From IMG/VR virus record IMGVR_UViG_2703718774_000012: 64,000 nt of DNA. One strand, 5' to 3'. The notes beneath the pieces were generated by a model. That model worked only from the letters and a program-made list of their open reading frames with translations, was not told the origin of the DNA and made no database searches. Both the position numbers and the translations under genes were made by a program. Shown piece after piece: positions 6,301 through 64,000 of the stretch; positions within the stretch are counted from its first letter, which is position 1, and each line of letters begins with the position of its first letter. Source of the DNA: a virus. Taxonomy: Duplodnaviria > Heunggongvirae > Uroviricota > Caudoviricetes.

Positions 6301-6303
6301 GGT

Positions 6304-22539: not shown

Positions 22540-22614
22540 TGGCGATGGTGGGTGGATTCGAACTACCGACCAGTTGGTTAACAGCCAACTGCTCTACCGC
22601 TGAGCTACACCATC
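22540..22614 (-). tRNA. tRNA-Asn (anticodon GUU)
   Basis: 75-nt cloverleaf GATGGTGTAGCTCAGCGGTAGAGC-A-GTTGG-CTGTTAA-CCAAC...TTCGAAT...CACCATCGCCA on minus strand. Confidence 0.8.
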
Positions 22615-43888: not shown

Positions 43889-43938
43889 AGTTACGGCCTC
43901 ACAATCAGGTTTAACAACCTGCTACCCGCTGTCAAACA

Positions 43939-44016
43939 GGTGGCAGGACGTGACAGGGTTGACAGACTGGCGATTGTGAAACCAGCAGGCCGAAGCCTCC
44001 CCATCACGCCCCACCA
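43939..44016 (-). ncRNA. c4: c4-like antisense repressor RNA of immI (~78 nt)
   Basis: Minus strand GGTGGGGCG...CACAATC...CTGTCAAC...CCTGCCACC: loops complementary to TTGACAG and GATTGTG repeats found upstream (~44085-44105) and at the icd RBS (~43895-43935); closing stem GGTGG/CCACC. Confidence 0.5.
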
Positions 44017-44202
44017 TAATTTGGGCGTAACGCGGTTTAACGGACACAAAAATACCGCAATATCGGAAATCTGCGGTTGTCCGCACAATCATTCAGGCTG
44101 TCAAACCTGGTCGCAGAATTTGCTACGACGGCGGAACTATAAGCCTGAACGATTAAAAGGTCAATATGATGCGAAAAGATAGCATTCGCGACTTAAAAAT
44201 AC

Positions 44203-44219
44203 AAATTTATTAGAGCATT
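44203..44219 (-). promoter_or_regulatory. C1-type operator (AATGCTCTAATAAATTT) with TTGACC-N17-TATAGT promoter for c4-icd-ant
   Basis: 16/17 consensus match; strong sigma70-like promoter immediately downstream on minus strand. Confidence 0.5.
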
Positions 44220-44315
44220 GCTTGTTTAATAAATGCACAATTGGATCTAATAACCTCTTTTTTTTAAAGGCGAAAATATGTACCCTAAATGAGTTATAAG
44301 GCAGGTGAGGTTATA

Positions 44316-44807
44316 ATGAGAAAACTATTACTACCGTTATTATTTATGGCTGGGACTGTTAATGCAGCATCAAGCGTGAAGGAGATTTGTACCGATTATA
44401 CGAAATACCTTGGGCACGTTTACGGCTTTGCTGTCAGTCAAGACGAATCCATGCGCAAGAAGTTACTGTCAGATATGAAACGTCTTAAACTTTCTGAAGC
44501 GATGGTGCAGCAAGAACTATATAAAGTCGCAACCAACGAAAATGCTAAATATCAATATTCTCGCCTATTAAATCCCGACGCAAACGAGATCAATCGAAGC
44601 ACTTTCGATTATATGGTAAAGGCATGCGAAACCGCTCCTGATTTTGCTATCCCTAGCTGGGGTGTGCTGGTGGCGAGCAATGCCGTTAATAAAGAAGATG
44701 TTGGAAGAAATGGCATTGACTCAATAAGAAATGCCCCAGGAATGCGCCATCAAAACGTACAGGGTACGCTTGAAGAACGAGCCAGGGGGCCGGGTGTAGC
44801 CCCATAA
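44316..44807 (+). CDS. secreted protein of unknown function (signal peptide)
   Basis: Start MRKLLLPLLFMAGTVNAAS with GGTGAGG RBS; AT-rich gene; C-terminus carries PGMR..VQGTLEERARG motif also present in the tape-measure protein. Confidence 0.45.
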   Translation: MRKLLLPLLFMAGTVNAASSVKEICTDYTKYLGHVYGFAVSQDESMRKKLLSDMKRLKLSEAMVQQELYKVATNENAKYQYSRLLNPDANEINRSTFDYMVKACETAPDFAIPSWGVLVASNAVNKEDVGRNGIDSIRNAPGMRHQNVQGTLEERARGPGVAP

Positions 44808-44895
44808 TTTAATAAATAATATTAAATTCTCTGGGCATAGTGGATCTAACAATATGGACTATGCCTATAATATCTAAAAACAAAAGGATAAAAAT

Positions 44896-45402
44896 ATGAA
44901 ATTGTATAAGTCATTGTATAGCTTTTTATTAATGTTCTCTTTTCTGCCATTATCAGCAATGGCAGGTTCTACCGTTTGGACGGTAGGAGGTGAGCAAGGG
45001 TGGAGAGAAATCTCTGCAACCAATGACGATGGTTACACAATTAACTTTTCCTGTGATGCTGGAGCAAGGGAAGGTTCAGAAGATCATATCGCTGGAAGAA
45101 ATTTGTATGTAAGCGGAGGAAAAGAGAATGCCGATTTTTCTACACGCGACACAATATCACGTAAAGCAGATGTAATTACTTTAATTGTTGGCCCGGATAG
45201 TTTTAATATTGGCACGCAAAACACTGCTCCTAATCGTAGGGAATGGTATTCATTTTGGAAGGCAGTGTCATCTACAAATGAAAAAAAAATAGATGTATAT
45301 ATCGGTTCGAGTCGAATCACATCATTCACTCTGGATGGTATTTCCAGTATTTATACAGAAGCTAAAAATGACGGGTGTTTAAAACAAGATGACGGTGAAT
45401 AA
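44896..45402 (+). CDS. secreted protein of unknown function (signal peptide)
   Basis: MKLYKSLYSFLLMFSFLPLSAMAGS; contains A9 homopolymer in coding sequence. Confidence 0.5.
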   Translation: MKLYKSLYSFLLMFSFLPLSAMAGSTVWTVGGEQGWREISATNDDGYTINFSCDAGAREGSEDHIAGRNLYVSGGKENADFSTRDTISRKADVITLIVGPDSFNIGTQNTAPNRREWYSFWKAVSSTNEKKIDVYIGSSRITSFTLDGISSIYTEAKNDGCLKQDDGE

Positions 45403-46573
45403 AGTGAAGGATATTAAAAAACTTGCACTTGGCTCAGTAAGCGATCTCTATAATAGAGATTCAAATATTACCTGGCGTGATAATTTAAGTAAAATCAAAA
45501 TGCCAGGATATACATCGGCAAGTGATTTATTAAAATCAGAATATGCTTCTAATAATTTGGTTAGACAGTTGGCAGAACTGCAAAAAAACGCAATCATTCC
45601 ATCGTATAGAGAACATATGGCAAACTTGCAAGAACAGTTAAGAATAGGGCGGCTAGCTCAAGAACAAATAGCAAGATTGAATTTGCAATCGTTACTTAGT
45701 GATTCTGTTAAAAAACAGCTTGCGAACATGACGAGCTTGAGAAGAATAAATAGCAAGCATCGTGAATTTCTTGAAATTCTACAGAAACAGGCCAAGGTTT
45801 ATCCCCCGCATGATGCAAATAAATACATTCAAATGCTAAGGAAGCAGGCAGAAATTGCTATGCCGTTACGAAACCAGTTCGAGATGCTTAATAAGCAAGC
45901 TGGTTTAAATAACATGCAAGCAATACTTAATGAATTGCGACAAAATGTAAGTCATAAGATAGATTTAAACAATGAAATAAAAGAATCATTAAAACAATAT
46001 ACCCTAGCGCAAAAGGCTTCATTACATCAAATAATGGAGCAAAGTCTTTCATCAATTGCACAGGCTTATGTCGAAGGTGCTATTGAAACATCTCACAACG
46101 AAAGTGATGTTCAAGACAAAGGATTAAATAAATCCAGTCCGACGTTCATTGATTCATTTAAGTCGCTCCCTCACCCGCTTCAGTTTATTATTATGTGGCT
46201 TTTAACAGAAGTGGTGCTTGGCGCTATTGCTGATTATGCAAAAGAACAAATCTTATCGCAAATACACAAGACAGAATCATATTCTGTATCCCTATATGAG
46301 GATGCACCAATATCAAAACAAAAATTAATTAAAGAAAACACAGAAATTAAGTGGGAAGATCTCAATGGTTTTAGGTTTATAACTGGTGATAACGTAAGAT
46401 TACATGTCAGTCCTTCTTTAAATAGTGAAGTGATTGAATGCATTGGCAAAAACACAATTGTTGCTATTTTAGATAAGAAAGATCGTCAATGGCTTTACGT
46501 GCAGGTTAAATCAGGGGATGAGTTTATTACTGGTTGGATTACACGAACATACACAAAGCCTCTTAAGGCTTGA
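45389..46573 (+). CDS. membrane-anchored protein with coiled-coil region and C-terminal SH3-like domain
   Basis: Internal TM LQFIIMWLLTEVVLGAIADY; C-terminus ...VRLHVSPSLNSEVIECIGKNTIVAILDKKDRQWLYVQV..GWI resembles bacterial SH3. Confidence 0.45.
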   Translation: MTVNKVKDIKKLALGSVSDLYNRDSNITWRDNLSKIKMPGYTSASDLLKSEYASNNLVRQLAELQKNAIIPSYREHMANLQEQLRIGRLAQEQIARLNLQSLLSDSVKKQLANMTSLRRINSKHREFLEILQKQAKVYPPHDANKYIQMLRKQAEIAMPLRNQFEMLNKQAGLNNMQAILNELRQNVSHKIDLNNEIKESLKQYTLAQKASLHQIMEQSLSSIAQAYVEGAIETSHNESDVQDKGLNKSSPTFIDSFKSLPHPLQFIIMWLLTEVVLGAIADYAKEQILSQIHKTESYSVSLYEDAPISKQKLIKENTEIKWEDLNGFRFITGDNVRLHVSPSLNSEVIECIGKNTIVAILDKKDRQWLYVQVKSGDEFITGWITRTYTKPLKA

Positions 46574-46703
46574 ATTTTATCTCCGCATCTTCGGATTGGG
46601 TGTTGATGACGATGTGCTACTTGAAGCACTTGAGTTGTTTTAACGTAGTATCTGAAATGTGTAGACTGACCGGTAACAAATGACAACTCGTAGAATCGGT
46701 TAA

Positions 46704-48893: not shown

Positions 48894-51800
48894 ATGGAAA
48901 GAAAAAACGCCAATATTGACGATGTTATAAGGACAGTTGAAACCGCCAGCGCGAAAGAGCTGGAAGAGCTTGCAGGTATTCGGGAAGCTGTTGAAGATTT
49001 GAAAGGGGAACGAGTTGCAACTGTTGATCCTGTCTCTCGCAGTGTGTCGGCATTAAATCGCACAATCGAAAATTCCCGGCCAGACTTTGTGGCCAATGCG
49101 CCATCAGTAGACCCTATTGTTGACGCAATGAAACGGCTTAATTTAGGGGACGTTTCTCGTGTAGTTCAGGAGGATGTTGATCTACAGGAACCGCAGGCCA
49201 AATCAACTACGCGAAAGGGTAAAAAACGACGCAAGAAGGCTATAACAGAAGATGTAAAGGCGCAACGGACCGAAGCAGCCGAACACGCTCGCGAAATGTT
49301 CGGTCAAAAAGGCGGTGCGCAAAAAAGCCAAAACCAACGCGATGCGCGTGGTCGTTTTATTGGAAAGTCAGGGAGTAAGGCCGCAGCGGAAGATGCCCGT
49401 GCTGAACGTGCTGAAAAGGCCTGGCGCAAAGAGGATGATGAGCGTCTAAATGCTGAATCAGGTTTATTAAAAAAACTGTCAAAAGTAGCTGAAGGCATAG
49501 GTAACCCTTCAGAGACTCGTGCCGTCGATGCGTTAGGTTATGCCGTTGCTGGTCCATTGTGGGCAGCAGGGAAGGAGCTTGGCGGGATATCAAAAGAAGT
49601 TGGTGGATCGCTTAATGGTGCCAGAAAGTCTATTGCCGATGTGATTCGTGGCAATGACGATAACAGCCGTAGAAAAGGTTTTTTTAGGCGTAAATCGCAA
49701 AATAGTGCCGATGTCGTTCAGGTTAACACCCAAAAACGGACGGTTCAGGAACTTCAGGAGCAGACCAGCGAAATTAAAGAGGGCAATGACAAGATTCTCC
49801 GTGCCCTTGATCAGATAGCCAAAAACACCGGTAAAAAGAAGGGCGGCTTGCTGTCCAAACTATTTAGCCTGTTAGGGAAGGGGGCCGGTGGCGTCGCGTC
49901 GTTGTTAATGGGGCGTGGCATGCTGAAAAAAGCTGGAGCACTCGCTTTTGGCGCTCTGGGGGCAAAGAAACTTGTAGGAATGCTACGCGGTGGTGGCAAG
50001 AAGACTCTCGCTCATGAAGGCGGAGATTTGGCTGCCCGGGCAGCAGGTAAACTTGGATTAAAGGCAGTTGGTAAAGGGGCGTTACGCGCAATTCCCCTAG
50101 TCGGCACAGTGGCTGGAGGTATTTATGGTGCGGTAACCGGTTGGAATGATACAGAAGCGCAACGTCGAGCGTTTGGGCTTAAATCAGGACAAGATCCATC
50201 ATTCCAGCAAAAAGCCGCTTATACGTTAGCTAATGTTCTTGATATGGGGGGACTGGTATCTGGTATTAGCAGCGCCATTGGTGAGGTTCTCAAATCACTT
50301 GGATTTGAGGATATCGGCAATATGTTGCAATCATTTTCGACGGAAAGTATTGCCCTGGCCATTGATAGTGGGATTACCAACTTAGAAACATATATTTCTA
50401 ACCTTGGCGACACCATTTCTACCAAGTTCGATGATTACACAGCAAAGATTGGTGATGCTGTTTCAGCATGGTTTAGCGATACATCTAATAAGCTGCTTGA
50501 AAAGCTGGATGCCATCAAAGACTTCTTTACTGTCGATAACCTGAAACAGGTTTTCAGTGATGCAATTGATAGTGCAATTGATTTCATTAAGAACCCAGGG
50601 AAACACATTAAAGAGGCGGCTGGTAATATTTGGGATGGGGTTAAAAATTTACCAGGTAAAGCATTAGATGCAGCGGTTGATGCCGTTAAAAATACCCCTG
50701 CGGCAATGATTGTATCAAAAATACCCAATCCGATCGGCGAGGCTAATGCGAAAGAAATCACTCCAGAGTCAAAAGTTCCGGTTAATAGCCACCAGGGGAC
50801 ATCTGATTCTAAAACTGAATCCGATGCCAAACAGACTAATATTGCTGCCCGCGTGATATATGCGGCCCTGGATATGGCGAAAGATAGCAATAAAACAGTT
50901 AAAGAAACTGCTAATCAGATTATCAATGCAAATGCCGTAGAAACAGGAAATAAAGCAGCACAAACAATTGATGCTGCCTTGGGCCAGTCTGCTACAGGTA
51001 AGGAGGAAGCATTAAGTGCATATGAGATAGATAAACGTCGATTTAACAATGGCAAGGATGTTTCTTTGCCAAAATTAAATGCTGCCGGATACCAATGGAT
51101 TTCTGACAATGCCGATTATTTTGATGAGCTTGAACGTAAGTATGGGCTTGAAAAAGGGATTCTGTCAGCAGTTGCATCCGCAGAGTCTAGTGCAGGCCAG
51201 AGAACTGGAAATCCAGTAGACAAAAACGGGAACAAACTTTCATCTGCCCTTGGGGCTTTTCAGATCACTAAAGGTACAAGGGAGGATCTTGGACTCAGCG
51301 ATGCTGATGCCATGGATACACGAAAAGCAGCTGATGGTGCCGCCAGATACCTAAGTATGCTGATGAACCGTTATAACGGTGACCAGGGTCGTGCAATAGC
51401 TGCCTATCATGCTGGTATGGGGCATGTTGATAAGGGGAGAGTAGTCGCAGGTACCGGCGAATATGTTACTCGTGTCAGAGGGTATCAGCAGATGCTCAAT
51501 AATGGTGCCGTTTATGGCTCTAAGGTAGATCATAGCGCACCAGCAATTTACGAAAAGATACCTGATAACGCCGTTATCGATCAGTCTACTGGCCTGGCGT
51601 TTACCCCTGGTGATAGCCCGTTTGAGAAAGGCGGTCTGGTCGACAAAATCGGCAATGCTGTTGGCGTTAACGATCTGGTCAACAAATTCATGAATGGCCG
51701 GGGGATGCGTCGGGAAGTCGTTCAGGGAACGCTAGAAGAACGTGCACGAGGGAAGGGGACCGCAACAGCAGCTGGCAATGTGTATGTTGATACTCCGATG

Positions 51801-52268
51801 CCAGTTGAAGAGGCGCGTCCGGTGGCCAACAACTCAAGTTACTTTGACCATCTCGGCGCACAAATGGGGATTGATGGACTATTCGATAAACTCCGCAACT
51901 CGCCGGGGATGCGGAAAAATAATGCGCCTGAACCAGCCTCCACGTCCCAGGTGACGACTGCCGCCAACGATTTGCAGCAACCAACCGGTCGTATGCAGAT
52001 AGACGGGCAGGTTATTAGTGACCTTGGCGGTTCCGGTGCCAAGCCGACAATGCAGTTGGCTGATAATACCGTTTCACTTGATGGTGAAACGAAGCGGCTG
52101 TTTGCGCAGATGACCTCATTGCTTGCCAGGATTGAAGAGCACACTAAAGACTCGGCGAAAGGCCAGGGAACTGTCGTAAAGGTCAGCACGCCTCAGCCGG
52201 GCGTTATGCGCACGGTACCACTGTCAATTGATGATCCGTTGATGAATGACTACGCGAGAGTTGATTGA
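48894..52268 (+). CDS. tape-measure / injection protein with lytic transglycosylase (SLT) domain (P1 Sit-like)
   Basis: 1124 aa; Gly/Lys-rich N-terminal third; SLT signature AVASAESSAGQ...GAFQITKGT...AAYHAGMGHV. Confidence 0.7.
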   Translation: MERKNANIDDVIRTVETASAKELEELAGIREAVEDLKGERVATVDPVSRSVSALNRTIENSRPDFVANAPSVDPIVDAMKRLNLGDVSRVVQEDVDLQEPQAKSTTRKGKKRRKKAITEDVKAQRTEAAEHAREMFGQKGGAQKSQNQRDARGRFIGKSGSKAAAEDARAERAEKAWRKEDDERLNAESGLLKKLSKVAEGIGNPSETRAVDALGYAVAGPLWAAGKELGGISKEVGGSLNGARKSIADVIRGNDDNSRRKGFFRRKSQNSADVVQVNTQKRTVQELQEQTSEIKEGNDKILRALDQIAKNTGKKKGGLLSKLFSLLGKGAGGVASLLMGRGMLKKAGALAFGALGAKKLVGMLRGGGKKTLAHEGGDLAARAAGKLGLKAVGKGALRAIPLVGTVAGGIYGAVTGWNDTEAQRRAFGLKSGQDPSFQQKAAYTLANVLDMGGLVSGISSAIGEVLKSLGFEDIGNMLQSFSTESIALAIDSGITNLETYISNLGDTISTKFDDYTAKIGDAVSAWFSDTSNKLLEKLDAIKDFFTVDNLKQVFSDAIDSAIDFIKNPGKHIKEAAGNIWDGVKNLPGKALDAAVDAVKNTPAAMIVSKIPNPIGEANAKEITPESKVPVNSHQGTSDSKTESDAKQTNIAARVIYAALDMAKDSNKTVKETANQIINANAVETGNKAAQTIDAALGQSATGKEEALSAYEIDKRRFNNGKDVSLPKLNAAGYQWISDNADYFDELERKYGLEKGILSAVASAESSAGQRTGNPVDKNGNKLSSALGAFQITKGTREDLGLSDADAMDTRKAADGAARYLSMLMNRYNGDQGRAIAAYHAGMGHVDKGRVVAGTGEYVTRVRGYQQMLNNGAVYGSKVDHSAPAIYEKIPDNAVIDQSTGLAFTPGDSPFEKGGLVDKIGNAVGVNDLVNKFMNGRGMRREVVQGTLEERARGKGTATAAGNVYVDTPMPVEEARPVANNSSYFDHLGAQMGIDGLFDKLRNSPGMRKNNAPEPASTSQVTTAANDLQQPTGRMQIDGQVISDLGGSGAKPTMQLADNTVSLDGETKRLFAQMTSLLARIEEHTKDSAKGQGTVVKVSTPQPGVMRTVPLSIDDPLMNDYARVD

Positions 52269-52624
52269 TGGCCAACAATAACGAAATTGATCCTTTGCTG
52301 ACGCTGGAGTTATCCGGCGTAAAAACGTATGAGTCCCAGGAGGAGGCCTGGGGCGCTCGTTTATATGAGTGGCTAAACACTTATCAGGGTGAGGTATACG
52401 GAGATCCGTCATGGGGCAATGTTTTACCGCAGTTTAAACACGAACCGACCAACTTGTCGCATGTTCAAATTGCGGTTGAGGCAATGCTGTTGCAAAAACT
52501 GACGGTAGATTTACCTGACATACCGATTTCTGGCTTGTCAGTAGCCGAGGGAGATGCTTTTGATAAGTTGAAAATATCCATTCGTATCAGGGATATAACT
52601 ATCACACAGGACGTGGTGCTATGA
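52265..52624 (+). CDS. baseplate wedge protein (gp25/gpW-like)
   Basis: 119 aa directly between tape-measure and J-like genes; size and position. Confidence 0.45.
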   Translation: MMANNNEIDPLLTLELSGVKTYESQEEAWGARLYEWLNTYQGEVYGDPSWGNVLPQFKHEPTNLSHVQIAVEAMLLQKLTVDLPDIPISGLSVAEGDAFDKLKISIRIRDITITQDVVL

Positions 52625-54054
52625 GTAAAACAACACCGACTAAAGACAGTATTCGTGCAGAGTTTGAAGAGCTTGTCGAGAAAGATTCATTCTGGTCGAA
52701 GTTTGTCGGCTCTCAATTTGTCTCGATGCTGACATTGTTTATTACCCAGATTGTCTACAGGTGCTTTCAGTATGCCGATGCGGCGCTGGCTGAAGGCTTT
52801 ATATCGACCGCGACGCGGCGTTCCTCTATCCTGGCAGCGGCAGAAACGAATAGTTACGTTGGTACCAAGCCAACACCGTCATCGGGGATGATTGAGATCA
52901 CCGCCACAAGTGAAGATGCCCCAGCGGTAATCCCCAAAAACATGCCTTTAATATCTGACGACCAGTACCCTTACATGACTATGGATGTATGCAGGTTGGT
53001 TGACGGCACCGGTACGGTAGAAGTGGCACAGTTGGAAATCCAGGAGGTGACATATACCGTTACGGCAGCCAAAGAATTTCTGGAAGTCGTGTTATCAAAG
53101 GCTCTCACTGCTGTCTGCTATAAGCTGGAAGTATTCGTGACGACCGATGGTAAGACCACGCAGTGGTCTTCCAGCACTATGTTCCGGTTAGCCGGTAGTA
53201 AAAGCCAAGTCTACGTTGAGTTTTATAAACCATCCGAGCAGTTGGGGGTTCGATTCGGTGATGGGCTAATTGGGCAAATACCGCCAGAAGGCTCGACCAT
53301 TACACTTAAGGTATGGTGCACCAACGGAGATATAACCTTGGTTGCTGGCCAAAATCTGACGCCTGTCGATTCTGCGGCTAATTTAGCTAATTTGATTTCA
53401 GTTAAGACAACGACACCCATAACCGCAGGTACCGATGCCGAAACAACGGAGATCACACGTAATCGTGCACAATATTACCTTGCCTATGATGATCAGGTCG
53501 TATGGGGCGGGGACTATACGTATTTTCTGGTGCGTAACATCCCGGGACTGTCATGGGTAAAGGCATGGGGCGAAGGCCAGCAAGAGAAATTAGATGGTGC
53601 TTATAATGTTCGGAATATCAATAAGATATTTATTTCAGGGTGGCATCCAAATAAAAGCCAGTCAGAGCTTGAAGAAATGATCCTGGCTGCCTTTAAGAAG
53701 GTGCCGAATGAGTTGAACAAGAAATTCTCGTATAAAGAGGTCAGAAAACTACCATTTAAGATAACCATCACCGGACGGATATCGGCAAGCCTGACCATTG
53801 AGAATGTGACCGATGAGCTGAAGTCGGCACTGGAAACAAAATTTGGGCGCGACTCAACTTTCTTTGATCCGAACCGCGTCGGGAAGTACATCCTGATTAA
53901 GAAAAAAGACGTTTGGGCGTTTATCGAAACGCTGGGTTATTTCCGCGACTTTTATCTGGAATTTGTCGAGTGGAATGAGTCCAACGGCTTTTACGATTTC
54001 GTTTATCTGGATACAGAAAACTCCACCTTTAATATTTCGTATGAGGAGGAGTGA
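52621..54054 (+). CDS. baseplate J-like protein
   Basis: 477 aa; gene order W-J-I-fibre; context-based. Confidence 0.45.
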   Translation: MSKTTPTKDSIRAEFEELVEKDSFWSKFVGSQFVSMLTLFITQIVYRCFQYADAALAEGFISTATRRSSILAAAETNSYVGTKPTPSSGMIEITATSEDAPAVIPKNMPLISDDQYPYMTMDVCRLVDGTGTVEVAQLEIQEVTYTVTAAKEFLEVVLSKALTAVCYKLEVFVTTDGKTTQWSSSTMFRLAGSKSQVYVEFYKPSEQLGVRFGDGLIGQIPPEGSTITLKVWCTNGDITLVAGQNLTPVDSAANLANLISVKTTTPITAGTDAETTEITRNRAQYYLAYDDQVVWGGDYTYFLVRNIPGLSWVKAWGEGQQEKLDGAYNVRNINKIFISGWHPNKSQSELEEMILAAFKKVPNELNKKFSYKEVRKLPFKITITGRISASLTIENVTDELKSALETKFGRDSTFFDPNRVGKYILIKKKDVWAFIETLGYFRDFYLEFVEWNESNGFYDFVYLDTENSTFNISYEEE

Positions 54055-54890
54055 TGCAGCGTTCCTGGTTTAATAACCGGCTTACATCAGCTAAGCAAAA
54101 GTCATTGCTCTATAAATCATTGGCTGATTTGGTTCAGTCAATGATGGACACCTTTGTTGACCCATGGTTGGAGCGAATTACCAACCGGAAGTCTATTTTC
54201 TCCATGAGCAAGGAGGATCTGGAGACCAGGACAAATGAACTTGGCCAGTTCTTTACTATCAGAACCTCGGACTCATCTTCCGTTCCGATGTTGTTACAAC
54301 AGCGGCTTGATGAGATCCACTTTAAGGGAACTGAACGTCCTATAAACCAGACAATTTACCGCGAATTTAACGGTATTTCTGTTTTATGGGATCCGATATA
54401 TGCACCGGTGGACCTTGAGCGTCATCCCTATGGCACAGTTCTAATACCAGAAAGCACATTGGAGACTACCGGCGGCACATTCGGCGAGATGTTTCTGACT
54501 TCCAGAGGGATGATCAGTATTCCCATAAACGACCTGGCCCGGACAATGGGTATTACTGGCACGATAGATCAGTCCGCAATTACAGAAGAAATTCTCAGAA
54601 AGTTTAATCAGTTCGTAAAGCCTCTACTGCCACTGCATATAGTGTTTGATGGGCTTACGCTCTATTTGTCGGTTGTTGTAAATGAACAGGCCGACATGAT
54701 CACTTTGAACGAGATTTCTGATACCGAAAAAGCATTCTGCTGGTTTGAAACTTCGGATACAACTTCGCTTACTGGAGTTACGTCGATTAGCGCCCCGATC
54801 ACCGCAACGCCTGGTGGCACTATTGTGAAAGCGACACCTACGTTTGATCGCACCCGCGCAGATGATTTGTTGCTGGATAGCGACGCCTGA
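54051..54890 (+). CDS. baseplate/tail-fibre attachment protein (gpI-like position)
   Basis: ORF track; operon context. Confidence 0.4.
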   Translation: MMQRSWFNNRLTSAKQKSLLYKSLADLVQSMMDTFVDPWLERITNRKSIFSMSKEDLETRTNELGQFFTIRTSDSSSVPMLLQQRLDEIHFKGTERPINQTIYREFNGISVLWDPIYAPVDLERHPYGTVLIPESTLETTGGTFGEMFLTSRGMISIPINDLARTMGITGTIDQSAITEEILRKFNQFVKPLLPLHIVFDGLTLYLSVVVNEQADMITLNEISDTEKAFCWFETSDTTSLTGVTSISAPITATPGGTIVKATPTFDRTRADDLLLDSDA

Positions 54891-54968
54891 CAATCACCCC
54901 GTCCGCAGGGCGGGGTGACAAGTTACTTCTCTTACAATGAGGCTTCACAACAGTGATTAGGGAAAATC

Positions 54969-55403
54969 ATGTCTGACGTCTCAACAAACCTCTATAAGAG
55001 TCAGTTGTTGGACTATTACTATCAGCGGCGCGCTGAATCGTCCATTAACAAAGGCTCTCGATTTTTAATCAGCAAGGCCGTTTTCGGTACCAGTTCTCTG
55101 GTTACTAAGAAAGGAGATGGCACTTATGAGATTGGAGAACTGCCAAAGGCTTTCGATCTGGCAGAACTGACCAGCCAATTTTGTACCATCAACCTCGTGC
55201 CAACCTACTCAGGTGGGATAATTACTGTCCGAATGGACCTTGATCAAAGCCAGTTGCAGGAAGGGAAAAACTACCCATTCAACACTCTGGTTGTTCTGGA
55301 TAACGAGAACAAGCCAATCGCCATTATTTGTGTCCAGGAAGACTCGTTGTATGTGGGCAAAACATATACCGCAGTTATGGCCATAAACACGACAACAGCA
55401 TAA
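54969..55403 (+). CDS. small tail-fibre-associated protein (P1 R-like position)
   Basis: 144 aa immediately upstream of tail fibre gene. Confidence 0.4.
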
Positions 55404-55414
55404 GGATATGCTTG

Positions 55415-58264
55415 ATGAATGACGTTACAGTTGTTACATCAGTTACTTACCCATCACCCGAGTCGTTGGCTCTGGTGGCTGATGTGCAATACCACGAACC
55501 ATATCTGTCAGCCGCGCTAAACCGAAAATTCAGGGGGATTGTTGACCCGGGATTTTATGCCGGTTTCTTACCTAAGCCTGGCGGTGGGATGAACCTGTTA
55601 ATCACCTCTGTGGATGGTGATAAAACTGCTGGCGCAGCGTCAGTGGATATTGGTGAATTCTACCAGGTAACTATTCAGCAACGTACGGATATTCCTCTTG
55701 CACTTAGTGCAGGCAAGAAATATGCAATTGTGCTGAAGGGAAGATACCTCCTTGGAGAGGATACCTATCAGGTTAATACCGCGTCACATATTCATGCGGC
55801 TGAATTTGTTACCAGAACCTATACCGATTCATATCAGTTAGGAGATGGGGAGCTGCTTGTTTGTACGGTGAATATCCCTGCTGGAGTATCAGCCATTACC
55901 CAGGAGATGATTGATACATCCGAGCGTATTAACCGCACGATCGGCATTGATATTTCAGACTCTGTAACCAGTAGCAGAAGTGATGTTGCTGCAAGTTCGC
56001 TGGCAGTTAAAAAAGCCTACGATCTGGCGAACAGTAAGTATACGGCGCAGGATGCAAGCACAACGCAAAAGGGATTAGTTCAGCTCAGTAGCGAAACTAA
56101 CAGCGACAGCGAAACAATGGCGGCTACCCCTAAAGCCGTTAAGTCTGTAAAAGATCTTGCTGATACCAAAGCGCCAATAGAAAGCCCGAGTCTGACAGGA
56201 ACGCCAACCGCGCCGACGGCAGCGCAAGGTACAAATAGCACGCAGATCGCAAATACAGCCTTTGTTAAGGCAGCTATAACGGCACTTATCAACGGTGCAC
56301 CTGGCACACTGGATACGCTTAAAGAAATAGCTGCTGCGATCAATAACGACCCGAATTTCAGCACAACTATCAACAATGCTCTGGCTCTTAAAGCTCCTTT
56401 AGCAAGTCCTGCATTAACGGGAATACCTACTGCGCCTACCGCTGCACAGGGTACGAATAACACGCAGATTGCTACGACCGCTTATGTAAGAGCTGCCATA
56501 TCCGCATTGGTTGGTTCATCACCAGAAGCTCTTGATACCCTGAATGAGCTTGCCGCAGCACTTGGTAATGACCCGAACTTTGCGACAACAATGACAAATG
56601 CGCTGGCAGGCAAACAGCCTCTGGATGCAACTTTAACCGCGCTTGCTGGTCTTGCTACAGGCGCAAATAAATTGCCGTACTTTACCGGTACAGACACTAT
56701 TTCTCAGACTGACTTAACGTCAGTCGGTCGCGATATTCTGGCCAAAACAAGCGTCCTTGCTGTTATCCAATACCTTGATTTAAGAGAACTTGGCACAAGC
56801 GGTGAAAAGATCCCCCTGTTGAGCACGGCTAACAAATGGAGTGCACGCCAGACTTTCAACGGTGGGATCACCGGGGCGCTGACAGGGAACGCCGACACCG
56901 CGACGAAATTAAAAACAGCCATAAACATTAATGGCGTCAGATTCGATGGTTCGGCTGACATTAATATCAATACTCTGGTATCTCGCGGTCGCGTAACGGC
57001 CCTAGAGGCGAATGCACAGGGAACATCCGGGATTCAGCTGTATGAGGCATACAACAATGGCTACCCTTCCCCCTATGGCAATGTGCTTCACCTTAAAGGT
57101 GCCACCGCTGCTGGCGAAGGTGAGTTATTCATTGGCTGGAGTGGCACGAGCGGTGACCATGCGCCCGTACATATCCGTTCGCGGCGTGATACTGATTCTG
57201 CCAACTGGTCTGAATGGGCGCAGGTCTATACGTCAAAAGATTCAATTCCCGGCGTCAATGCCAAAGGGGATCAGGACACCTCTGGTAATGCGGCTACAGC
57301 GACCAAGTTGCAGACAGCATGTACTATCAATGGCGTCTCGTTTGATGGTTCTACTGATATCACTTTAACCGCTGCGCATGTTGCTGCTTTTGCCAGAAGA
57401 GCAACGGATACGTATGCCGATGCGGATGGGGGCGTTCCCTGGAATGCCGAATCAGGCGCTTACAATGTCATTCGCTCTGCCGACAGCTATATTCTGGTTA
57501 ACTTCTATACCGGAGTCGGAAGTTGCCCGACCTTGCAGATGAAGGCGCATTACAGAAATGGTGGTCTGTTCTACCGTTCTTCAAGAGACGGTTATGGTTT
57601 TGAGGAAGACTGGGCAGAAGTTTATACCTCGAAAAATCTTCCACCAGAAAGCTACCCAGTCGGCGCACCAATCCCGTGGCCATCAGATACCGTTCCGTCT
57701 GGTTATGCCCTGATGCAGGGGCAGACTTTTGACAAATCTGCATACCCGAAACTTGCAGCGGCTTATCCGTCAGGCGTTATTCCTGATATGCGTGGCTGGA
57801 CGATTAAGGGCAAGCCCGGCAGTGGTCGTGCCGTATTGTCTCAGGAACAGGACGGCATTAAATCGCACACCCACAGCGCCAGCGCATCCAGTACGGATTT
57901 GGGGACGAAAACCACATCGTCGTTTGATTACGGTACTAAAACGACCAGTTCATTTGATTACGGCACAAAAACTACGAATAGCGCTGGAAATCATTCACAC
58001 AATATACCTGTTGGTCACACTGGCGCGGGGAATGGTGTATCAGCCGGTTTTAACGCTGCGTTAGGTACTGGTACCACGTCGAGCGCAGGCGGGCATGCTC
58101 ACAATGTATATATCGGTGCCCATAACCACACTATCGGCATTGGTGCTCATGCCCATTCTGTCATTATTGGTCCCCACGGACACACCATCACCGTTAACGC
58201 TACGGGTAACGAAGAAAACACCGTAAAAAACATCGCATTTAACTATATTGTGAGGCTTGCATAA
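55415..58264 (+). CDS. tail fibre protein (949 aa) with collar-like repeats and C-terminal His-rich HxH repeats
   Basis: Start MNDVTVV with AAGGA RBS (track starts earlier at 55328); repeats [23 protein letters not shown] / [23 protein letters not shown]; C-terminal [34 protein letters not shown]. Confidence 0.8.
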
Positions 58265-58842
58265 TGACATTCAGAATGAGTGAACAATCACGGACCATAA
58301 AAATTTATAATCTACTGGCTGGAACCAATGAGTTTATTGGTGAAGGTGATGCATACATTCCACCTCATACAGGTCTGCCTGCAAACAGTACCGATATTGC
58401 CCCGCCAGATATTCCGGCTGGCTTCGTGGCCGTTTTCAACAGTGATGAGGCATCGTGGAATCTCGTTGAAGACCATCGGGGAAAAACCGTCTATGACGTG
58501 GCTTCCGGCGACGCGTTATTTATTTCTGAACTTGGCCCATTACCGGAAAATGTCACCTGGTTATCCCCGGAAGGGGAGTTTCAGAAGTGGAACGGCACAG
58601 CCTGGGTGAAAGATGCAGAAGCAGAAAAACTGTTCCGGATCCGGAAGGCGGAAGAAACAAAAAACAGCCTGATGCAGATGGCCAGTGAGCATATTGCGCC
58701 ACTTCAGGATGCCGTAGATTTGGATATTGCGACGGAGGAAGAGGCATCGTTACTGACTGCATGGAAGACATATCGGGTATTGTTGAATCGTGTTGATACA
58801 ACAGTAGCATCGGATGTTGAGTGGCCAGTCGCCCCGCAATAA
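58264..58842 (+). CDS. tail fibre assembly chaperone (Tfa/U-like)
   Basis: 192 aa; start overlaps fibre stop (TAATG); pattern ...[15 protein letters not shown]...[19 protein letters not shown] typical of Tfa. Confidence 0.75.
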
Positions 58843-58885
58843 AAGGATAAAGCCATCGATAGAAATATTGATGGCTTCATGTACT

Positions 58886-59458
58886 CTATTTATACAATAC
58901 AACACCGCTCTTTTTTGTTATATATGTGCAGTTCGATGGTATATCTTTATTTATAAAAGACATTGCACCTATTTTTACATTATCCCCAATTTTACGTGAT
59001 AATCCAATGATGCAACAATTAGCTCCGATATCAACGTTATTACCAATTTTTACTCTTGAACCAGGCATGTCACCATCTACCTGTCCAATGGTAGTATTCT
59101 GTCGCAAAACCAGATTTTCACCAGCATCAACAGCAAAATGAACAACAATTCCAGTATGATGGGGAATTGTTAAACCTTTTCCAATATTTGCGCCCAATCC
59201 AATTTCGCAACCAAATCTGTTAATTATATTATTGTTTAACTTTCTGGCTGCTTTCTTATGTAATTTATTGCCATTAATATACATTTCATTAGCCAGTCTC
59301 CACCAGAAAAGGAAATTCCGATTGCGCTGCTTCTTCTCTCTTAATAGTCGCCAAACATCCATTTTTTCACGCCTGATGATTTCAGCCATCCAATAGCTCA
59401 ATAGAGCTTTTGAATTCCCGAAGATGACAAAGTGAATAGCTATTAAGTAACATAACAT
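58886..59458 (-). CDS. hexapeptide-repeat (left-handed beta-helix) acetyltransferase
   Basis: Repeats GLGANIGKG, IVVHFAVDAGENLVLRQNTTIG, VKIGNNVDIGANCCIIG; AT-rich gene convergent with tail fibre operon. Confidence 0.65.
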   Translation of the reverse strand: MLCYLIAIHFVIFGNSKALLSYWMAEIIRREKMDVWRLLREKKQRNRNFLFWWRLANEMYINGNKLHKKAARKLNNNIINRFGCEIGLGANIGKGLTIPHHTGIVVHFAVDAGENLVLRQNTTIGQVDGDMPGSRVKIGNNVDIGANCCIIGLSRKIGDNVKIGAMSFINKDIPSNCTYITKKSGVVLYK

Positions 59459-59948
59459 ATTGCAACTGCCTATATTTTTTGGTTTCTATGGTTATATATT
59501 GACATTATAATTAAAACAATAATCATCAGTGTGTTACTGCGTTCCTGCTAAACTAAATCAACGCACAATGTAAACACAAATGTTAATTTTAAACTGAGCG
59601 CTAAAGGGATGTCAATATTGTATTGATAATGAGTTGCAAGATTGCCAACACTTTCTATATTTTTGGATGTAATAATTTATATTTTATCTATTTAGTGTTT
59701 CTTTAGACTTATTAAGGATGTCATTATTAATTTATGGCTTGCCATTTCTATACATATCTGTTAAAAATTTTGACTTGTTTGTTGAAAATAGATTTAATTG
59801 ATTGGTTTATTTTTTACATGACGCTCTTTAATATAGCTTCAGGTATATATAAGCACAATGCATTATTTCCAGAGGAAATTAACAAAATTGTTAGCTCTTA
59901 TTTGTTGAGCTTATAGATATTAATTAAGGCCCGATTCCGGGCCTTTCC

Positions 59949-60185
59949 TCATTCCGGCTTTTCGGGAAACGTTACTGGAAGGATGGAGGTATCCGTGGAT
60001 TCGACTTTCTGCGCATAGAGAATCCACTCGGTTAATTTTTGTTTACCCTGAACGGAAATAATGCCTAGCCGTAACTGTGAGTCCCAGAGCTGAGTTTTAT
60101 CCCTGACGAGCTGTAGCAGGCTTTGCTTTTCTTTTTCCGCTTGTTGTCTTTGCATGACCGGTTGAGAAGTTACTTTGCATACCAT
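59949..60185 (-). CDS. hypothetical small protein (78 aa)
   Basis: ATG with AGGAGGTA RBS; divergent from holin-like gene; track ORF longer (to 60446). Confidence 0.3.
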   Translation of the reverse strand: MVCKVTSQPVMQRQQAEKEKQSLLQLVRDKTQLWDSQLRLGIISVQGKQKLTEWILYAQKVESTDTSILPVTFPEKPE

Positions 60186-60213
60186 TACCTCCTGACAACG
60201 TAGGAGGGAACTT

Positions 60214-60543
60214 GTGCTTGACACACAGGAATTAGCTCCAGTTGCTATTGCGCTCCTGCTTTCAGTAATTGGTGGGATAGGCACGTTCCTGATGGATGTC
60301 CGAGACGGTCGCCAGTCTGGCAATTTGTTGGGATTGGTTACGGAGATCTTTGTTGCAGTGACAGCTGGCGCGGTGGCGTACCTATTGGGGCAACACGAGG
60401 GCTGGGAGTTATCAATTACGTACTTAATGGTAACGATAGCCAGCAATAACGGTCATGAGGTGATTTCAGGGATGAAACGAGTGAATATCGATAGCATTCT
60501 GAATGTTCTTACAAGTTTGGTGAAAAAGGGAGGTGGGAAATGA
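60214..60543 (+). CDS. putative holin (LydA-like), 109 aa
   Basis: GTG start with TAGGAGGGA RBS; 2-3 TM helices, charged C-terminus; first gene of late operon containing DarA-like gene. Confidence 0.45.
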   Translation: MLDTQELAPVAIALLLSVIGGIGTFLMDVRDGRQSGNLLGLVTEIFVAVTAGAVAYLLGQHEGWELSITYLMVTIASNNGHEVISGMKRVNIDSILNVLTSLVKKGGGK

Positions 60544-60983
60544 TTGGCTGGGGTGTATGCGCTCTTGCGTTAGCCTTAGCCGATCGCTATTTGCTAAAAC
60601 GCAAGGACATCACGCATTTAGAACTTGGTGATGTGGAAATTAAACCGGGTTTCATCCGGGTGCCGTTCAAATACCGGTCTAAATTCCCGTTTTTGCGTGG
60701 CGCAACGGTCAGATATTGGATCCGCGATGTTCAGAAGCCAACGACAGTGATTGAAGGCGAACAACGTTGTCTGACGTCGGCTGAACAGGGCGAAAACAGT
60801 GAATGGTTGTACATACCCACTGAATATATGGGTAAAGGAGAACGGCTGTGGCATTTCAACGTCATGGTTACGCATGGCGACTCGTTCATTAACCCGTTGT
60901 ATCGGATTTTCCCTGTTACTCAGCAAATCCGCAGAAGTTACGTAATAAATCTCGCACAGGATGTGTCAGATGACGAAAAATAA
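60540..60983 (+). CDS. putative antiholin/lysis accessory protein (LydB-like position)
   Basis: 147 aa, N-terminal signal-anchor; ATGA overlap with holin gene. Confidence 0.4.
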   Translation: MIGWGVCALALALADRYLLKRKDITHLELGDVEIKPGFIRVPFKYRSKFPFLRGATVRYWIRDVQKPTTVIEGEQRCLTSAEQGENSEWLYIPTEYMGKGERLWHFNVMVTHGDSFINPLYRIFPVTQQIRRSYVINLAQDVSDDEK

Positions 60984-61572
60984 GTATGCAACGGTCGATT
61001 TTGACCAGGTTAATGAAAAGGGGCTGAAATCCCTTATCGCGGCGATCAATAAAACCGGTGTTACGGTAATTGAGGTTGACTCCAGCAACCGCGCAACAAC
61101 GAAAGATGGCGTTAAAGTTAAAACCGCAAAGCTGGTTCTTAACGACGGACAAATTCTTGCCATACAGGTAAACGATACTGGCGATATATCGTCTGTGAGG
61201 CTGAATGGAAAAGCTATTCCTAACGCTCAATCGCCGGATATCAAGACGCTTGGTACCGTCATGGGGCAGGCGGCCCGCAAAAACTCCGCAAAATTCCAGA
61301 AATCACTGATCGCCAAAGCGAAACGTGTTGCCAATCCGGTAGACAAGAAACCGGCAGTAAAATCCAACTTTCAGCGCCTGCAAGAGGCAAAACAGCGGAA
61401 TGCTCAGGTGGTTGCCGCTTATAAATCAGCGCAGAACTCGGTGTCTTTCAATCAACAGCAGATCACTGATTTGCGGGCGAAGCTGGATAAGGAGACAGGC
61501 CGACTCAATAACGAAAAGGCCCGAAATGGCGAACTCAAACGCCGTCTTAAGCAACTGAAAGCAGGAAATTAA
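60961..61572 (+). CDS. hypothetical protein (203 aa), basic coiled-coil C-terminus
   Basis: ORF track; operon context. Confidence 0.5.
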   Translation: MCQMTKNKYATVDFDQVNEKGLKSLIAAINKTGVTVIEVDSSNRATTKDGVKVKTAKLVLNDGQILAIQVNDTGDISSVRLNGKAIPNAQSPDIKTLGTVMGQAARKNSAKFQKSLIAKAKRVANPVDKKPAVKSNFQRLQEAKQRNAQVVAAYKSAQNSVSFNQQQITDLRAKLDKETGRLNNEKARNGELKRRLKQLKAGN

Positions 61573-61573
61573 C

Positions 61574-63493
61574 ATGGAACAGTTCAATATCAATAAAGGG
61601 GTGACGATCAAGCCTGGGCTTGACGTGCTTCCCCCGCCAGTGACTGATGATGAATATCGCGCATTAATGGCCGGTGAGGACCGCTATCTGATGACGGAAT
61701 CCAACACCCTGGAGGAAATCGAGGCTACGTTCTTCTATGACACGCCGATCCACTGGTGTGCTACGGATTTACTGGAGGCGATTAGTTCTACTCGTTTGCA
61801 GTTACACCGGACCATGCAGGCATTTGTCCGGGCATTGAACCAGAAGCTGAATGGTACCGGAATCTCTGCGGGGAGTGATAAAACGGGGGATGTGGCCCAG
61901 AGCGGCGCGCGCGCGATCGGCGGAGCTGAAATTGGTCGGGCACGTAACGTTAACGGGTTGTCGGTCCTGCCAGCCATTATTCCGCTCAGTGATGGTCAGA
62001 CTATCAGCATTTTGTTTCATAGCCCGACAGCGGAAAACCGGATCACCAATAGCGATACGCTGGTTGCTTTCCAGTTCTTACTGAATAAAAAAGACGTTAC
62101 TCACACCGTTGCTCCGATGAGTGGACGTGATATGACGCTGGCGCAGGTCACCATGAAACTTGCCAACCTTGCAGAGAAAAACTCGGCAAAATTTCAGCGT
62201 GCGCAGAAGAAGAAAAAAGCCCTTGTTGATGAAATAACCCAACTACAGGCTGACAGTGACCAGAAAGAGGATGCCATGAGCGACCTCGTGGATCAGGTGG
62301 CAGCGGTAGAAGGGCAGAAGGTAGATCTGGAGCAGAAAATTAACGCTGTTGCATCGGAAGCGGATTCTCTTTATGAAGAGAATGAGCGTTTGCAGACGGA
62401 GATTGATCAGCTCAATCGAACTGGTGGGCGCGAAACCATTGCTCCTGCGGGGATGACTGGTGGACACTCTCGCGCGATGACGGATCGCCTTGCAAGTATC
62501 AAAAATCGTATGCATATGAACGGGGAAGTGACGCTCAGTAATGGTGCATCAATGAAGCAATTCATTGAGGACGGTGAAGGGTATATCCAGTTAACCGATT
62601 CGGATGGCAGCGTGTACATGATCAAGGCTAAATCCATACAGGGTGTGGACATGGCAGATGCGATCGGCAAGCTGTTTAAAGCCTATAAAGCGGGTAATGT
62701 ATCGGAATACCTGGTCCAACCAGAAGAACATAAACCGGAAAACGTCGAACCTGAACCAGCGGAGGATACCGGTAGCTCTTCGCCTGAACCAGAAGTCTCT
62801 GTAGGTGCATATCGATATGCCCTGCAAATGCGTCCGGCGGCCCCTGGCGCAATACCTGAAGGTAACAAAGCAATTCTGCCGCGCCCTGATGAAGGTGACC
62901 CGTATTATGAATATGCACGCTACGGCATTGCTACTTACGATACCCCGCTTTCTGATCAGCAAATGAGTGAGTACGACCTGAAGTTATTGCCTCGCGAGGA
63001 TTCTTTCGACTTCCTGGCGAAGACACTTACTAATGGTCCGTTTGGCAAATATGCACAAAAAGCTCTGGAGCTGGCCACCAGCTCACCAGACGAGTTCCGC
63101 GTAATGCTGAAAACTCAGTTTCAAAAAACTTTCCCCAATATTGCGTATCCGGGGGGCGCTGGCACCGAGAAAATGGTGCAGAGCATGATCAATGCATTGC
63201 AGGCCGAAGTCGGTGAGATTACTCAGCCAGAACCTGCCCCGGCACAGCCTGATGAAACGGTTAGCGAAGCAGATGCAGAGGCTAATAAAGCCATTGAATA
63301 TCTCAATAACGTGATGGATATGCAAAGCACTGACATGGCGGAGATCCGTAACGCCCGGGGTAATGTCCGGGAAGCGATTGCAGCCCTTCAGGCTGCCGGG
63401 CGTTTTGAGGAAAACGAAGAGCTGGTTAATGGCGCTGCTCGCCACCTGGCTGATCTGCTGGTAGCAATCCAGAAAGCGGGGGTAGCGGCATGA
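61574..63493 (+). CDS. DarA-like virion antirestriction/head-associated protein (639 aa)
   Basis: Size (~70 kDa) and position after holin/antiholin genes match the P1 darA operon as I recall it; no motif-level proof. Confidence 0.4.
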   Translation: MEQFNINKGVTIKPGLDVLPPPVTDDEYRALMAGEDRYLMTESNTLEEIEATFFYDTPIHWCATDLLEAISSTRLQLHRTMQAFVRALNQKLNGTGISAGSDKTGDVAQSGARAIGGAEIGRARNVNGLSVLPAIIPLSDGQTISILFHSPTAENRITNSDTLVAFQFLLNKKDVTHTVAPMSGRDMTLAQVTMKLANLAEKNSAKFQRAQKKKKALVDEITQLQADSDQKEDAMSDLVDQVAAVEGQKVDLEQKINAVASEADSLYEENERLQTEIDQLNRTGGRETIAPAGMTGGHSRAMTDRLASIKNRMHMNGEVTLSNGASMKQFIEDGEGYIQLTDSDGSVYMIKAKSIQGVDMADAIGKLFKAYKAGNVSEYLVQPEEHKPENVEPEPAEDTGSSSPEPEVSVGAYRYALQMRPAAPGAIPEGNKAILPRPDEGDPYYEYARYGIATYDTPLSDQQMSEYDLKLLPREDSFDFLAKTLTNGPFGKYAQKALELATSSPDEFRVMLKTQFQKTFPNIAYPGGAGTEKMVQSMINALQAEVGEITQPEPAPAQPDETVSEADAEANKAIEYLNNVMDMQSTDMAEIRNARGNVREAIAALQAAGRFEENEELVNGAARHLADLLVAIQKAGVAA

Positions 63494-63855
63494 CACTATC
63501 AGCTATTGAGTTAATGGATCTCAGCGATAAGTTGGATGCTCTGATGTCCAAAGCGGCTACCGCGAGTGGCATGGAGTTGCTGGATATCAGCGATGAAATT
63601 GACCAGATCATGCAACAGATGGGGTACGGCGTGTCCGGCGGCAGTAGTGACGAGGAAAAACAACCTTCGGAACATGATGGTGTGCCAAAACTGATTGCTG
63701 ATTTCCTGGCTGATAAATTCGTCGATCAGAGCACTGATGCATTTATCGGTACGTTACAGGACTTGAGTCAATATGTTGGCACATACATCGACCTGGACCA
63801 AGTTAAACAGCACACGGCGGCATGGATAGCCGCCAACATTAAAGAGGCAGCGTGA
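63490..63855 (+). CDS. hypothetical acidic protein (121 aa)
   Basis: ORF track; ATGA overlap with upstream gene; followed by GC hairpin ccacgcccttcggggcgtgg. Confidence 0.5.
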   Translation: MTLSAIELMDLSDKLDALMSKAATASGMELLDISDEIDQIMQQMGYGVSGGSSDEEKQPSEHDGVPKLIADFLADKFVDQSTDAFIGTLQDLSQYVGTYIDLDQVKQHTAAWIAANIKEAA

Positions 63856-64000
63856 CATCCTCCACGCCCTTCGGGGCGTGGATTCCTGCTACGTTCAGGC
63901 TGTCGCCTGAATCATTTCGGTGGGTTCCTGCTTCAACGGGCGGCCTGACTGCACCATCCCTCCACAGGCAAGTACGGCGTGCCCCGCCGCTAAAATGTTA

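Follow-up and report, generated by a model that had tools for sequence, protein, structure and literature searches.

The tail-fiber module at positions 55415 to 59458 of IMG/VR record IMGVR_UViG_2703718774_000012 raises the question of whether its virus ever possessed a host-range switch. A preliminary description of the 64,000-nucleotide stretch of DNA analyzed here (the window) held that the fiber gene and its Tfa chaperone gene are followed by neither an invertase gene nor inverted alternative copies, and that a convergent acetyltransferase gene stands where alternative fiber genes would be expected. Judged by its sequence, the window is a P1-like phage-plasmid (Punavirus): the R-Sc and lydA-darA stretches share 95 to 99% nucleotide identity with P1, P7, JL22, and vB_EcoM-Ro157c2YLVW, and the P1 gene order is kept (sit-pmgA-bplA-16-R-S ... 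lydA-lydB-hdf-darA-ddrA). As alignment with these relatives shows, the locus is a degenerate P1 C-segment whose host-range switch was disabled by a 2,877-bp deletion, and the fiber is locked in its Stf-type "on" state. We consider it highly probable that the overall history is that of a frozen C-segment with a borrowed cassette, a later deletion, and an accessory acetyltransferase gene; no evidence contradicting the structural and evolutionary part of this account was found.

Remains of the switch and the deletion that disabled it

The fiber gene S (55415-58264, plus strand; 949 amino acids; Pfam Phage_fibre_2, Collar, and gp37_C) is chimeric. Its P1 constant part, Sc (55415-56764), is followed by the proximal part of P1 Sv, which is the repeat arm, and by a distal tip (~57354-58264) of the lambda/Rac Stf type. 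P1 homology within S ends at 57353, while homology to lambdoid and Rac stf/tfa sequences (~92%) spans ~57295 to ~58830. The 589-bp inverted-repeat arm of the C-segment (56765-57353, plus strand) is 96 to 98% identical to both arms of P1 and JL22 and is the sole survivor, as no second copy occurs anywhere in the window. A relic of cixR is found at 56766-56785, with 1 mismatch to the P1 site; this G-to-A change turns TTGGTTT into TTGATTT and replaces Gly with Asp in S. It was the only cix-like site retrieved when 20-mers with ≤4 mismatches were sought in the window and in NZ_CP058684.1, a complete plasmid of 89.6 kb that was the nearest complete replicon fetched (99.6% identity over 51559-64000). 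In place of two inverted cix sites in 0.6-kb inverted repeats, one site and one arm are present.

Downstream of S lie the gene for Tfa (58264-58842, plus strand; 192 amino acids; lambda/P2-like type; Pfam Caudo_TAP, E value of 8e-43), the acetyltransferase gene (58886-59458, minus strand), and a 463-bp AT-rich spacer (59459-59921), so the gene set of the preliminary description was found in place. P1 homology resumes at 59922. Directly after the spacer, 232 bp from the 3' part of the alternative chaperone gene U' survive as a relic (59922-60153, minus strand), which matches phrog_3792 tail assembly chaperone (E value of 2e-32) and is annotated in other records as a 78-amino-acid open reading frame (ORF) at 59949-60185. 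A GC-rich hairpin at 59926-59945 (folding energy of -14.6 to -16 kcal/mol) is the U/U' intergenic hairpin of P1. Between 60153 and 60154, the relic is fused to the stretch found 13 bp upstream of LPdar in P1 and JL22. This late promoter of lydA, mapped from the P1 annotation to 60167-60185 (plus strand), is identical to the P1 sequence and intact. Relative to JL22, the 2,877 bp missing at this junction comprise the 5' part of U', Sv', cixL, cin, and lydC.

Microhomology at the junction amounts to ≤1 bp, and no insertion sequence (IS) is present. Deletion by Cin was considered and rejected: the missing stretch encloses cixL instead of ending at it, microhomology is ≤1 bp, and the deletion was therefore illegitimate. 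The endpoints do contain a 7-bp inverted match, TTGTTGC on the U' side (window 60141-60148) and GCAACAA on the lydA side (lydC-lydA spacer of JL22, ~12192-12199 of the examined JL22 stretch), which could have brought the ends together but may be due to chance. The U' relic is 86 to 87% identical to U' of P1 and JL22 and comes no closer to any other full-length U' found, those of chromosomal prophages included, whereas its flanks reach 94 to 99%; the U'/Sv' allele of the undeleted ancestor is therefore not in the collections searched.

A tblastn search with P1 Cin gave chance hits only (E > 0.6) in both the 64-kb window and the complete NZ_CP058684.1, and the window holds no copy of Sv', the 5' part of U', cin, or lydC. 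Negative results for the window cover 64 kb of this replicon; another ~26 kb of the replicon lies outside the window. The preliminary description was therefore right that an invertase gene is absent, and a search for cin and cix, which it had proposed, returned no cin and a single, mutated cix-like site in the window and in NZ_CP058684.1. With the invertase gone and a single cix site left, itself mutated, the fiber is locked. The companion claim, that inverted alternative copies are lacking, stands insofar as no full alternative fiber or chaperone gene was found, and fails insofar as the 232-bp U' relic, cixR, and a repeat arm remain.

Set against the C-segment/Cin system of P1 (NC_005856; similar to G/Gin of Mu and Min of p15B), the window shares Sc, the position of cixR, a 0.6-kb repeat arm, the U/U' intergenic hairpin, LPdar, and the backbone gene order. 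It lacks cin, cixL, Sv', most of U', and lydC, and a lambda/Rac Stf-type tip plus Tfa take the place of P1 Sv and U on its expressed arm. Between the chaperone genes, which a 28-bp gap separates in P1, the window has the acetyltransferase gene and the AT-rich spacer.

The undeleted state is preserved in JL22 (ON018986), p15648-1, pC21-4, and pECY44-3, which have the same tip, tfa, acetyltransferase gene (named sacF), and spacer at 94 to 99% identity. These relatives retain the U', Sv', cixL, cin, and lydC sequences that make up the 2,877 bp missing from the window, whose U' allele also differs (87% identity). The order in JL22 is R, S with the same Stf-type tip, tfa, the acetyltransferase gene (minus strand), the AT-rich spacer, a full U' (minus strand), Sv' (minus strand), cixL, cin (minus strand), lydC, and lydA. 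The notion that the acetyltransferase gene takes the place of alternative fiber genes thus has to be abandoned, since in JL22, p15648-1, and pC21-4 it coexists with U', Sv', cixL, and cin, and JL22 and p15648-1 have the two opposed Sv/U gene sets that are absent from the window. In JL22 and pC21-4, Sc is joined to the Stf-type arm; in p15648-1 and pLH09-a-D, the segment is flipped, so that Sc continues into Sv' and cin is next to the Stf/tfa/acetyltransferase part. As both orientations occur among public plasmids, the acetyltransferase-bearing segment inverts, and, judged from these gene orders, the acetyltransferase gene is a passenger at the center of a working invertible segment, between two convergent chaperone genes. 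The copy in pLH09-a-D (NZ_CP100548.1; 89% identity) reads as frameshifted with the coordinates used (7172-7748 of the examined stretch), has no gene listed in the PLSDB table, and is possibly a pseudogene.

A module in which an invertible segment never existed or is cleanly missing, with the acetyltransferase gene filling the alternative-fiber slot, would agree with the absence from the window of cin and of any full alternative fiber or chaperone gene. We grant this explanation next to no probability: it is already refuted by the relics (cixR, one repeat arm, and U') and by undeleted relatives that hold the acetyltransferase gene plus Sv', U', and cin, and the junction maps precisely as a 2,877-bp deletion. 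Least probable of all is a switch still usable in trans through a host Din-family invertase, such as Pin of e14, for although Din invertases are interchangeable and cixR is still recognizable, the window and the complete related plasmid have one cix-like site only (≤4 mismatches), the second repeat arm and Sv' are lost, and the surviving site is changed at a conserved half-site position.

Origin of the cassette and spread of the deletion

Comparison with relatives shows that a ~2.6-kb cassette first took the place of the distal end of one ancestral fiber arm (distal Sv plus U); it comprises a Stf-type tip, Tfa, the convergent low-GC acetyltransferase gene, and the AT-rich spacer. Entry of this cassette placed the acetyltransferase gene in the middle of the C-segment, between convergent chaperone genes, in a segment that still inverts in the JL22 type. 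In the window lineage, the illegitimate 2,877-bp deletion seen at the junction then fused the U' relic to the sequence 13 bp upstream of LPdar.

Sequences related to the cassette are found in other prophages. The tfa gene has 92 to 95% nucleotide identity to tfa of lambdoid and P2-like prophages, and the unit of tip, tfa, and acetyltransferase gene is 90 to 95% identical to a unit in P2-like prophages on chromosomes of Escherichia coli that produces Shiga toxin (STEC; H19 and O157:H7); to these prophages, nucleotide identity through the acetyltransferase gene is 89.6%. In the P2-like prophages, this unit sits after the fiber genes H and G, at the G/FI (Z/fun) hotspot, and homology to it stops at the start codon of the acetyltransferase gene. 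The Z/fun position is a documented mixed hotspot for defense cargo, fiber swaps, and invertases (bioRxiv 10.1101/2024.10.15.618418). Counting close copies (at least ~85% nucleotide identity), the acetyltransferase gene is present in 530 of 5,426 complete E. coli genomes, or ~10%, at 533 chromosomal and 66 plasmid places. The AT-rich spacer, on the other hand, occurs among E. coli genomes only in P1-like plasmids with this cassette. As a side observation on tfa, Rfam family IS009 (RF02111) gives a full-length match at 58607-58805 (plus strand; 192 bits against a gathering score of 117) that falls wholly inside the 3' part of the gene, and this "sRNA" (small RNA) family seems to have been modeled on prophage tfa coding sequence. 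Beyond it, an Rfam scan of 58.7 to 60.3 kb gave chance-level matches only.

The identical deletion junction was found in 49 of the 5,426 complete E. coli genomes and is therefore not an assembly artifact. All copies are on plasmids of 72 to 108 kb, and the carriers are mostly STEC (O111:H8/H11/H2/H-, O26, O157:H7, and O103:H2). Spacer plus U' occurs in ~65 of the complete genomes, of which roughly 16 are thus undeleted; in PLSDB, 20 deletion-type and 13 undeleted plasmids were counted among 496 P1-like matches. The cixR mutation is tied to the deletion lineage, since TTGATTT is present in all six deletion-type loci in which cixR was covered and the canonical TTGGTTT in all five undeleted loci. 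This pattern fits a single origin of the deletion, and the change itself is possibly decay of a site no longer used. Among the P1-like plasmids of complete E. coli genomes, about one in ten has lost the switch via one identical deletion; these plasmids, mostly from O111, O26, O157, and O103 STEC, are fixed on a borrowed lambda/Rac-type tip, and a fixed tip bears on the hosts that these transducing elements can reach.

The isolated phage vB_EcoM-Ro157c2YLVW (NC_050153) carries the same junction. As it has the same locus, with a host (STEC O157) and a source (non-fecal compost) given in its database record, the locked form apparently still works as a phage. A literature search by the name of this phage found no paper. 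Both Ro157c2YLVW and STEC plasmids such as pO111_2 (NC_013370) share the junction and the mutated cixR at 98.7 to 100% identity; they show essentially no difference from the window at this locus and have mosaic backbones elsewhere.

The arrangement is already in dozens of public records, and parts of it have been described. In the JL22 study, U and part of S were described as replaced by sacF and tfa, and why the acetyltransferase is there was stated to be unknown (PMC9603915). For pJIE250-3, pSvP1, and pTZ20_1P, cin and the C-segment were described as lost or truncated, with presumed host-range restriction (Venturini et al. 2019, PMC6906374). Two of these three cases are IS mediated, pJIE250-3 has a remodeled locus of the p15B Min type, and the endpoints are others; the deletion in the window, in contrast, is a clean loss of 2,877 bp with little or no microhomology and no IS. 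We did not find, in the papers searched, a description of the exact deletion or of how far it has spread in STEC, of the acetyltransferase gene as a passenger in a working invertible segment, or of the conserved pairing of this gene with tfa that is described below.

The acetyltransferase and its candidate roles

The acetyltransferase gene encodes 190 amino acids and belongs to PHROG 2154 (E value of 1.1e-77, residues 1 to 158 of the short form against positions 23 to 181 of the 185-position profile). The 190-amino-acid reading is supported by residues 1 to 32, which can be aligned to an N-terminal segment conserved among distant members of the family. The Pfam Hexapep score, 24.6 bits, falls just below the gathering score of 27, and the scores against the EpsC model (77.9; cutoff of 150) and the WcaB model (57; cutoff of 196) are also below threshold. 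An AlphaFold2 model (pLDDT of 92.4), which ends at residue 190, has five helices followed by a left-handed beta-helix, a short form of the fold of serine acetyltransferases (SATs). The nearest solved structures are SATs (TMq of 0.68 to 0.75, 20 to 29% identity, probability of 1.00); the fold search returned these enzymes only and gave no clue to the acceptor. The protein belongs to the left-handed beta-helix (hexapeptide) acyltransferase superfamily. It retains the catalytic His, the His of "PHHTG" being conserved in at least 90% of the family, and has Glu in place of the partner Asp. The ratio of nonsynonymous to synonymous substitution rates (dN/dS) between alleles is 0.07 to 0.23, as expected under purifying selection. 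Given this ratio, the confident SAT-like model, and the retained His with its Asp-to-Glu partner, the enzyme looks functional.

The acetyltransferase gene (34.9% GC) and the spacer behind its start (26.8%) stand apart from the window as a whole (47.2%). The spacer holds no convincing ORF, and a hidden gene there was rejected, as the ORFs present are short and not credible. It does contain a near-consensus sigma-70-like promoter, TTGACA-18-TAAAAT, at 59615-59586 on the minus strand. Directly after the acetyltransferase stop codon, a hairpin with a U-rich tract (58847-58880, minus strand; -16.6 kcal/mol, z of -4.87 against shuffled sequences) probably acts as a terminator. Together, the promoter and the terminator-like hairpin suggest that the gene is transcribed independently.

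Across the family, the gene usually keeps company with tail-fiber chaperones. In 64 of 80 IMG/VR loci, a Tfa-type chaperone gene lies 19 to 90 bp downstream of the acetyltransferase gene and convergent to it, including in loci where the acetyltransferase is 42 to 67% and Tfa 34 to 80% identical. Annotations of Citrobacter phiNP, Hafnia yong2, and E. coli 613R2 show the same convergent arrangement, and in S. thermophilus phages the acetyltransferase gene follows a tailspike gene. Such pairing hints at a connection with the receptor-binding module.

Our preferred reading, to which we give slightly less than an even chance, is that the acetyltransferase gene is an accessory gene expressed in the lysogen from its own promoter and ended by its own terminator. 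By analogy with NeuO, the enzyme would O-acetylate, with acetyl-CoA as donor, an envelope-glycan precursor in the cytoplasm, candidates for the glycan being lipopolysaccharide (LPS), the O-unit, enterobacterial common antigen, colanic acid, and capsule, and would thereby alter surface antigenicity or phage adsorption. Lysogenic conversion or receptor modification, as put forward in the preliminary description, is plausible and gains contextual support from the conserved pairing with tail-fiber chaperone genes. Acetylation of the K1 capsule that depends on NeuO protects against K1 phage (PMC13001214). NeuO of prophage CUS-3 is likewise a single cytoplasmic left-handed beta-helix acetyltransferase on a temperate phage. 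The CUS-3 neuO gene is also near a tailspike gene. There is, however, no detectable sequence relation beyond the fold class (NeuO is absent from the PDB sequence matches at E ≤ 0.01), and, unlike neuO, the gene in the window has no phase-variable tandem repeat. NeuO-like phase variation was rejected, as no tandem repeats, and so no 5' heptanucleotide tract, were found in 55400-60200.

Several points weigh against an envelope target. The carrier hosts differ in O-antigen (O111, O26, O157, and O103), which makes an O-antigen-specific target unlikely. Stf/Tfa of the same type (~92% identity) very often occurs with no acetyltransferase gene, as in Rac stfR/tfaR. Lambda-type Stf tips use as receptor a protein, OmpC, that the enzyme would not acetylate. 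Homologs also occur away from fiber genes, namely, at a prophage end by zntA, on EAF/bfp (EPEC adherence factor; EPEC, enteropathogenic E. coli) plasmids, and on an Orbus chromosome, and no polysaccharide gene cluster was present among the homolog contexts examined. The tfa pairing, finally, could mean no more than that a site behind the last late gene, permissive for insertion, was inherited.

Two of these homologs can be described more closely. On EPEC EAF-type plasmids (e.g., CP042948.1), a 56%-identical homolog is found ~2.3 kb downstream of the operon for the bfp pilus; a 157-amino-acid gene without a Pfam match precedes it, in an IS-rich region and a context unrelated to tail fibers. By zntA in E. 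coli chromosomes, a 55%-identical homolog, listed in 594 index blocks of the assembly collection, ends a P2/HP1-like tail-fiber cluster and has a small Hok/Gef-like gene ~200 bp upstream on the same strand. The spacer in the window has no counterpart of this Hok-like gene.

The best surviving alternative, which we rate as rather unlikely, is an accessory gene with a target outside the envelope, serving anti-phage defense or counter-defense or acetylating a small molecule or protein, with the site by tfa as a permissive hotspot. The presence of the cassette at the mixed Z/fun hotspot of P2-like prophages (bioRxiv 10.1101/2024.10.15.618418), the homologs on virulence plasmids and at prophage ends without fiber genes, and the diverse O-antigens of the carrier hosts all favor it. 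Yet the acetyltransferase has no match in PADLOC-DB v2 at E ≤ 0.01, and the convergent pairing with tfa persists to 42% identity across P1-like, P2-like, and other phages, a linkage that exceeds what is usual for a random hotspot occupant.

More doubtful still is the extension of our envelope reading in which tip, chaperone, and acetyltransferase form one co-transferred module that binds a receptor and masks it. If so, the enzyme would acetylate the envelope glycan used for adsorption by the neighboring fiber or by competing phages; the lysogen would gain superinfection exclusion, and progeny would be spared adsorption to lysogens. In switch-competent relatives, the gene is convergent to late transcription when the Stf-type fiber is on and co-directional behind U' otherwise, so that masking would be coupled to the state of the host-range switch. 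A receptor-binding gene beside a receptor-blocking gene is familiar from T5, where pb5 is paired with llp, and from the fiber genes of phi80 and N15, which are paired with cor. There, too, a small, independently transcribed gene stands next to a receptor-binding module, often in the opposite orientation; those genes encode FhuA-blocking lipoproteins, whereas the gene in the window encodes an enzyme.

We consider it improbable that the enzyme is a true serine O-acetyltransferase, a metabolic accessory function boosting O-acetylserine and cysteine synthesis in the host, even though PGAP (the Prokaryotic Genome Annotation Pipeline) names it "serine O-acetyltransferase," its closest solved structures are SATs, and the catalytic His and an acidic partner are kept. 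It is not a housekeeping CysE ortholog, an identity that would have counted against the preliminary description: it scores 66 bits against TIGR01172 (cutoff of 210.65) and 42.7 against PRK11132 (cutoff of 397), and no SATase_N domain was found in it by Pfam. E. coli CysE has ~273 amino acids, and the matched SAT chains have 241 to 309 resolved residues against 190 amino acids here, in a model with a shortened helical domain and no C-terminal tail. The motifs "ldHatg" and "gdRHpk" of the Neisseria gonorrhoeae SAT (6wye) align to PHH and RV; that is, the SAT motifs DH and RH read PH and RV. The residues changed to Pro and Val are presumably the serine-binding Asp157 and His193 (E. coli CysE numbering).

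For the PHROG 2154 family, the literature searched contained no functional data, only notes of presence (the JL22 paper and Citrobacter rodentium phiNP, where the gene is "fitness" cargo). Because the gene is widespread (~10% of E. coli genomes), under purifying selection, and persistently paired with tfa, experiments on lysogenic conversion or exclusion would find in this family a well-defined target at low cost.

Backbone and neighboring genes

The sequences flanking the locus follow P1. Upstream, sit (48894-52268) is placed as in P1, and gene R (54969-55403, plus strand), the first of the P1 tail-fiber operon, is 98 to 100% identical to R of P1, JL22, and Ro157c2YLVW. Downstream, the lydA-lydB-hdf-darA-ddrA operon (60214-63855, plus strand) keeps the P1 order, beginning with the holin gene lydA (60214-60543, plus strand; Pfam Phage_holin_3_3) and followed by matches to LydB and DarA_N/C.

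Outside 51559-64000, NZ_CP058684.1 is mosaic relative to the window. Positions 1-6800 and 42965-46676 diverge from it (93 to 98% identity, or no match), which indicates mosaic exchange in regions flanking a conserved backbone. Four tRNA genes lie at 20347-22614 (minus strand), a Met-type tRNA with a CAT anticodon, annotated as tRNA-Ile in the related plasmid, and tRNAs for Thr, Tyr, and Asn; P1 has three tRNA genes and is not known to have a tRNA-Tyr. Between ddrA and ddrB, NZ_CP058684.1 has an inserted InsQ/TnpB-family gene (56867-58075 of that plasmid), and the window stops ~100 bp into the same stretch (~63895-64000 of the window).

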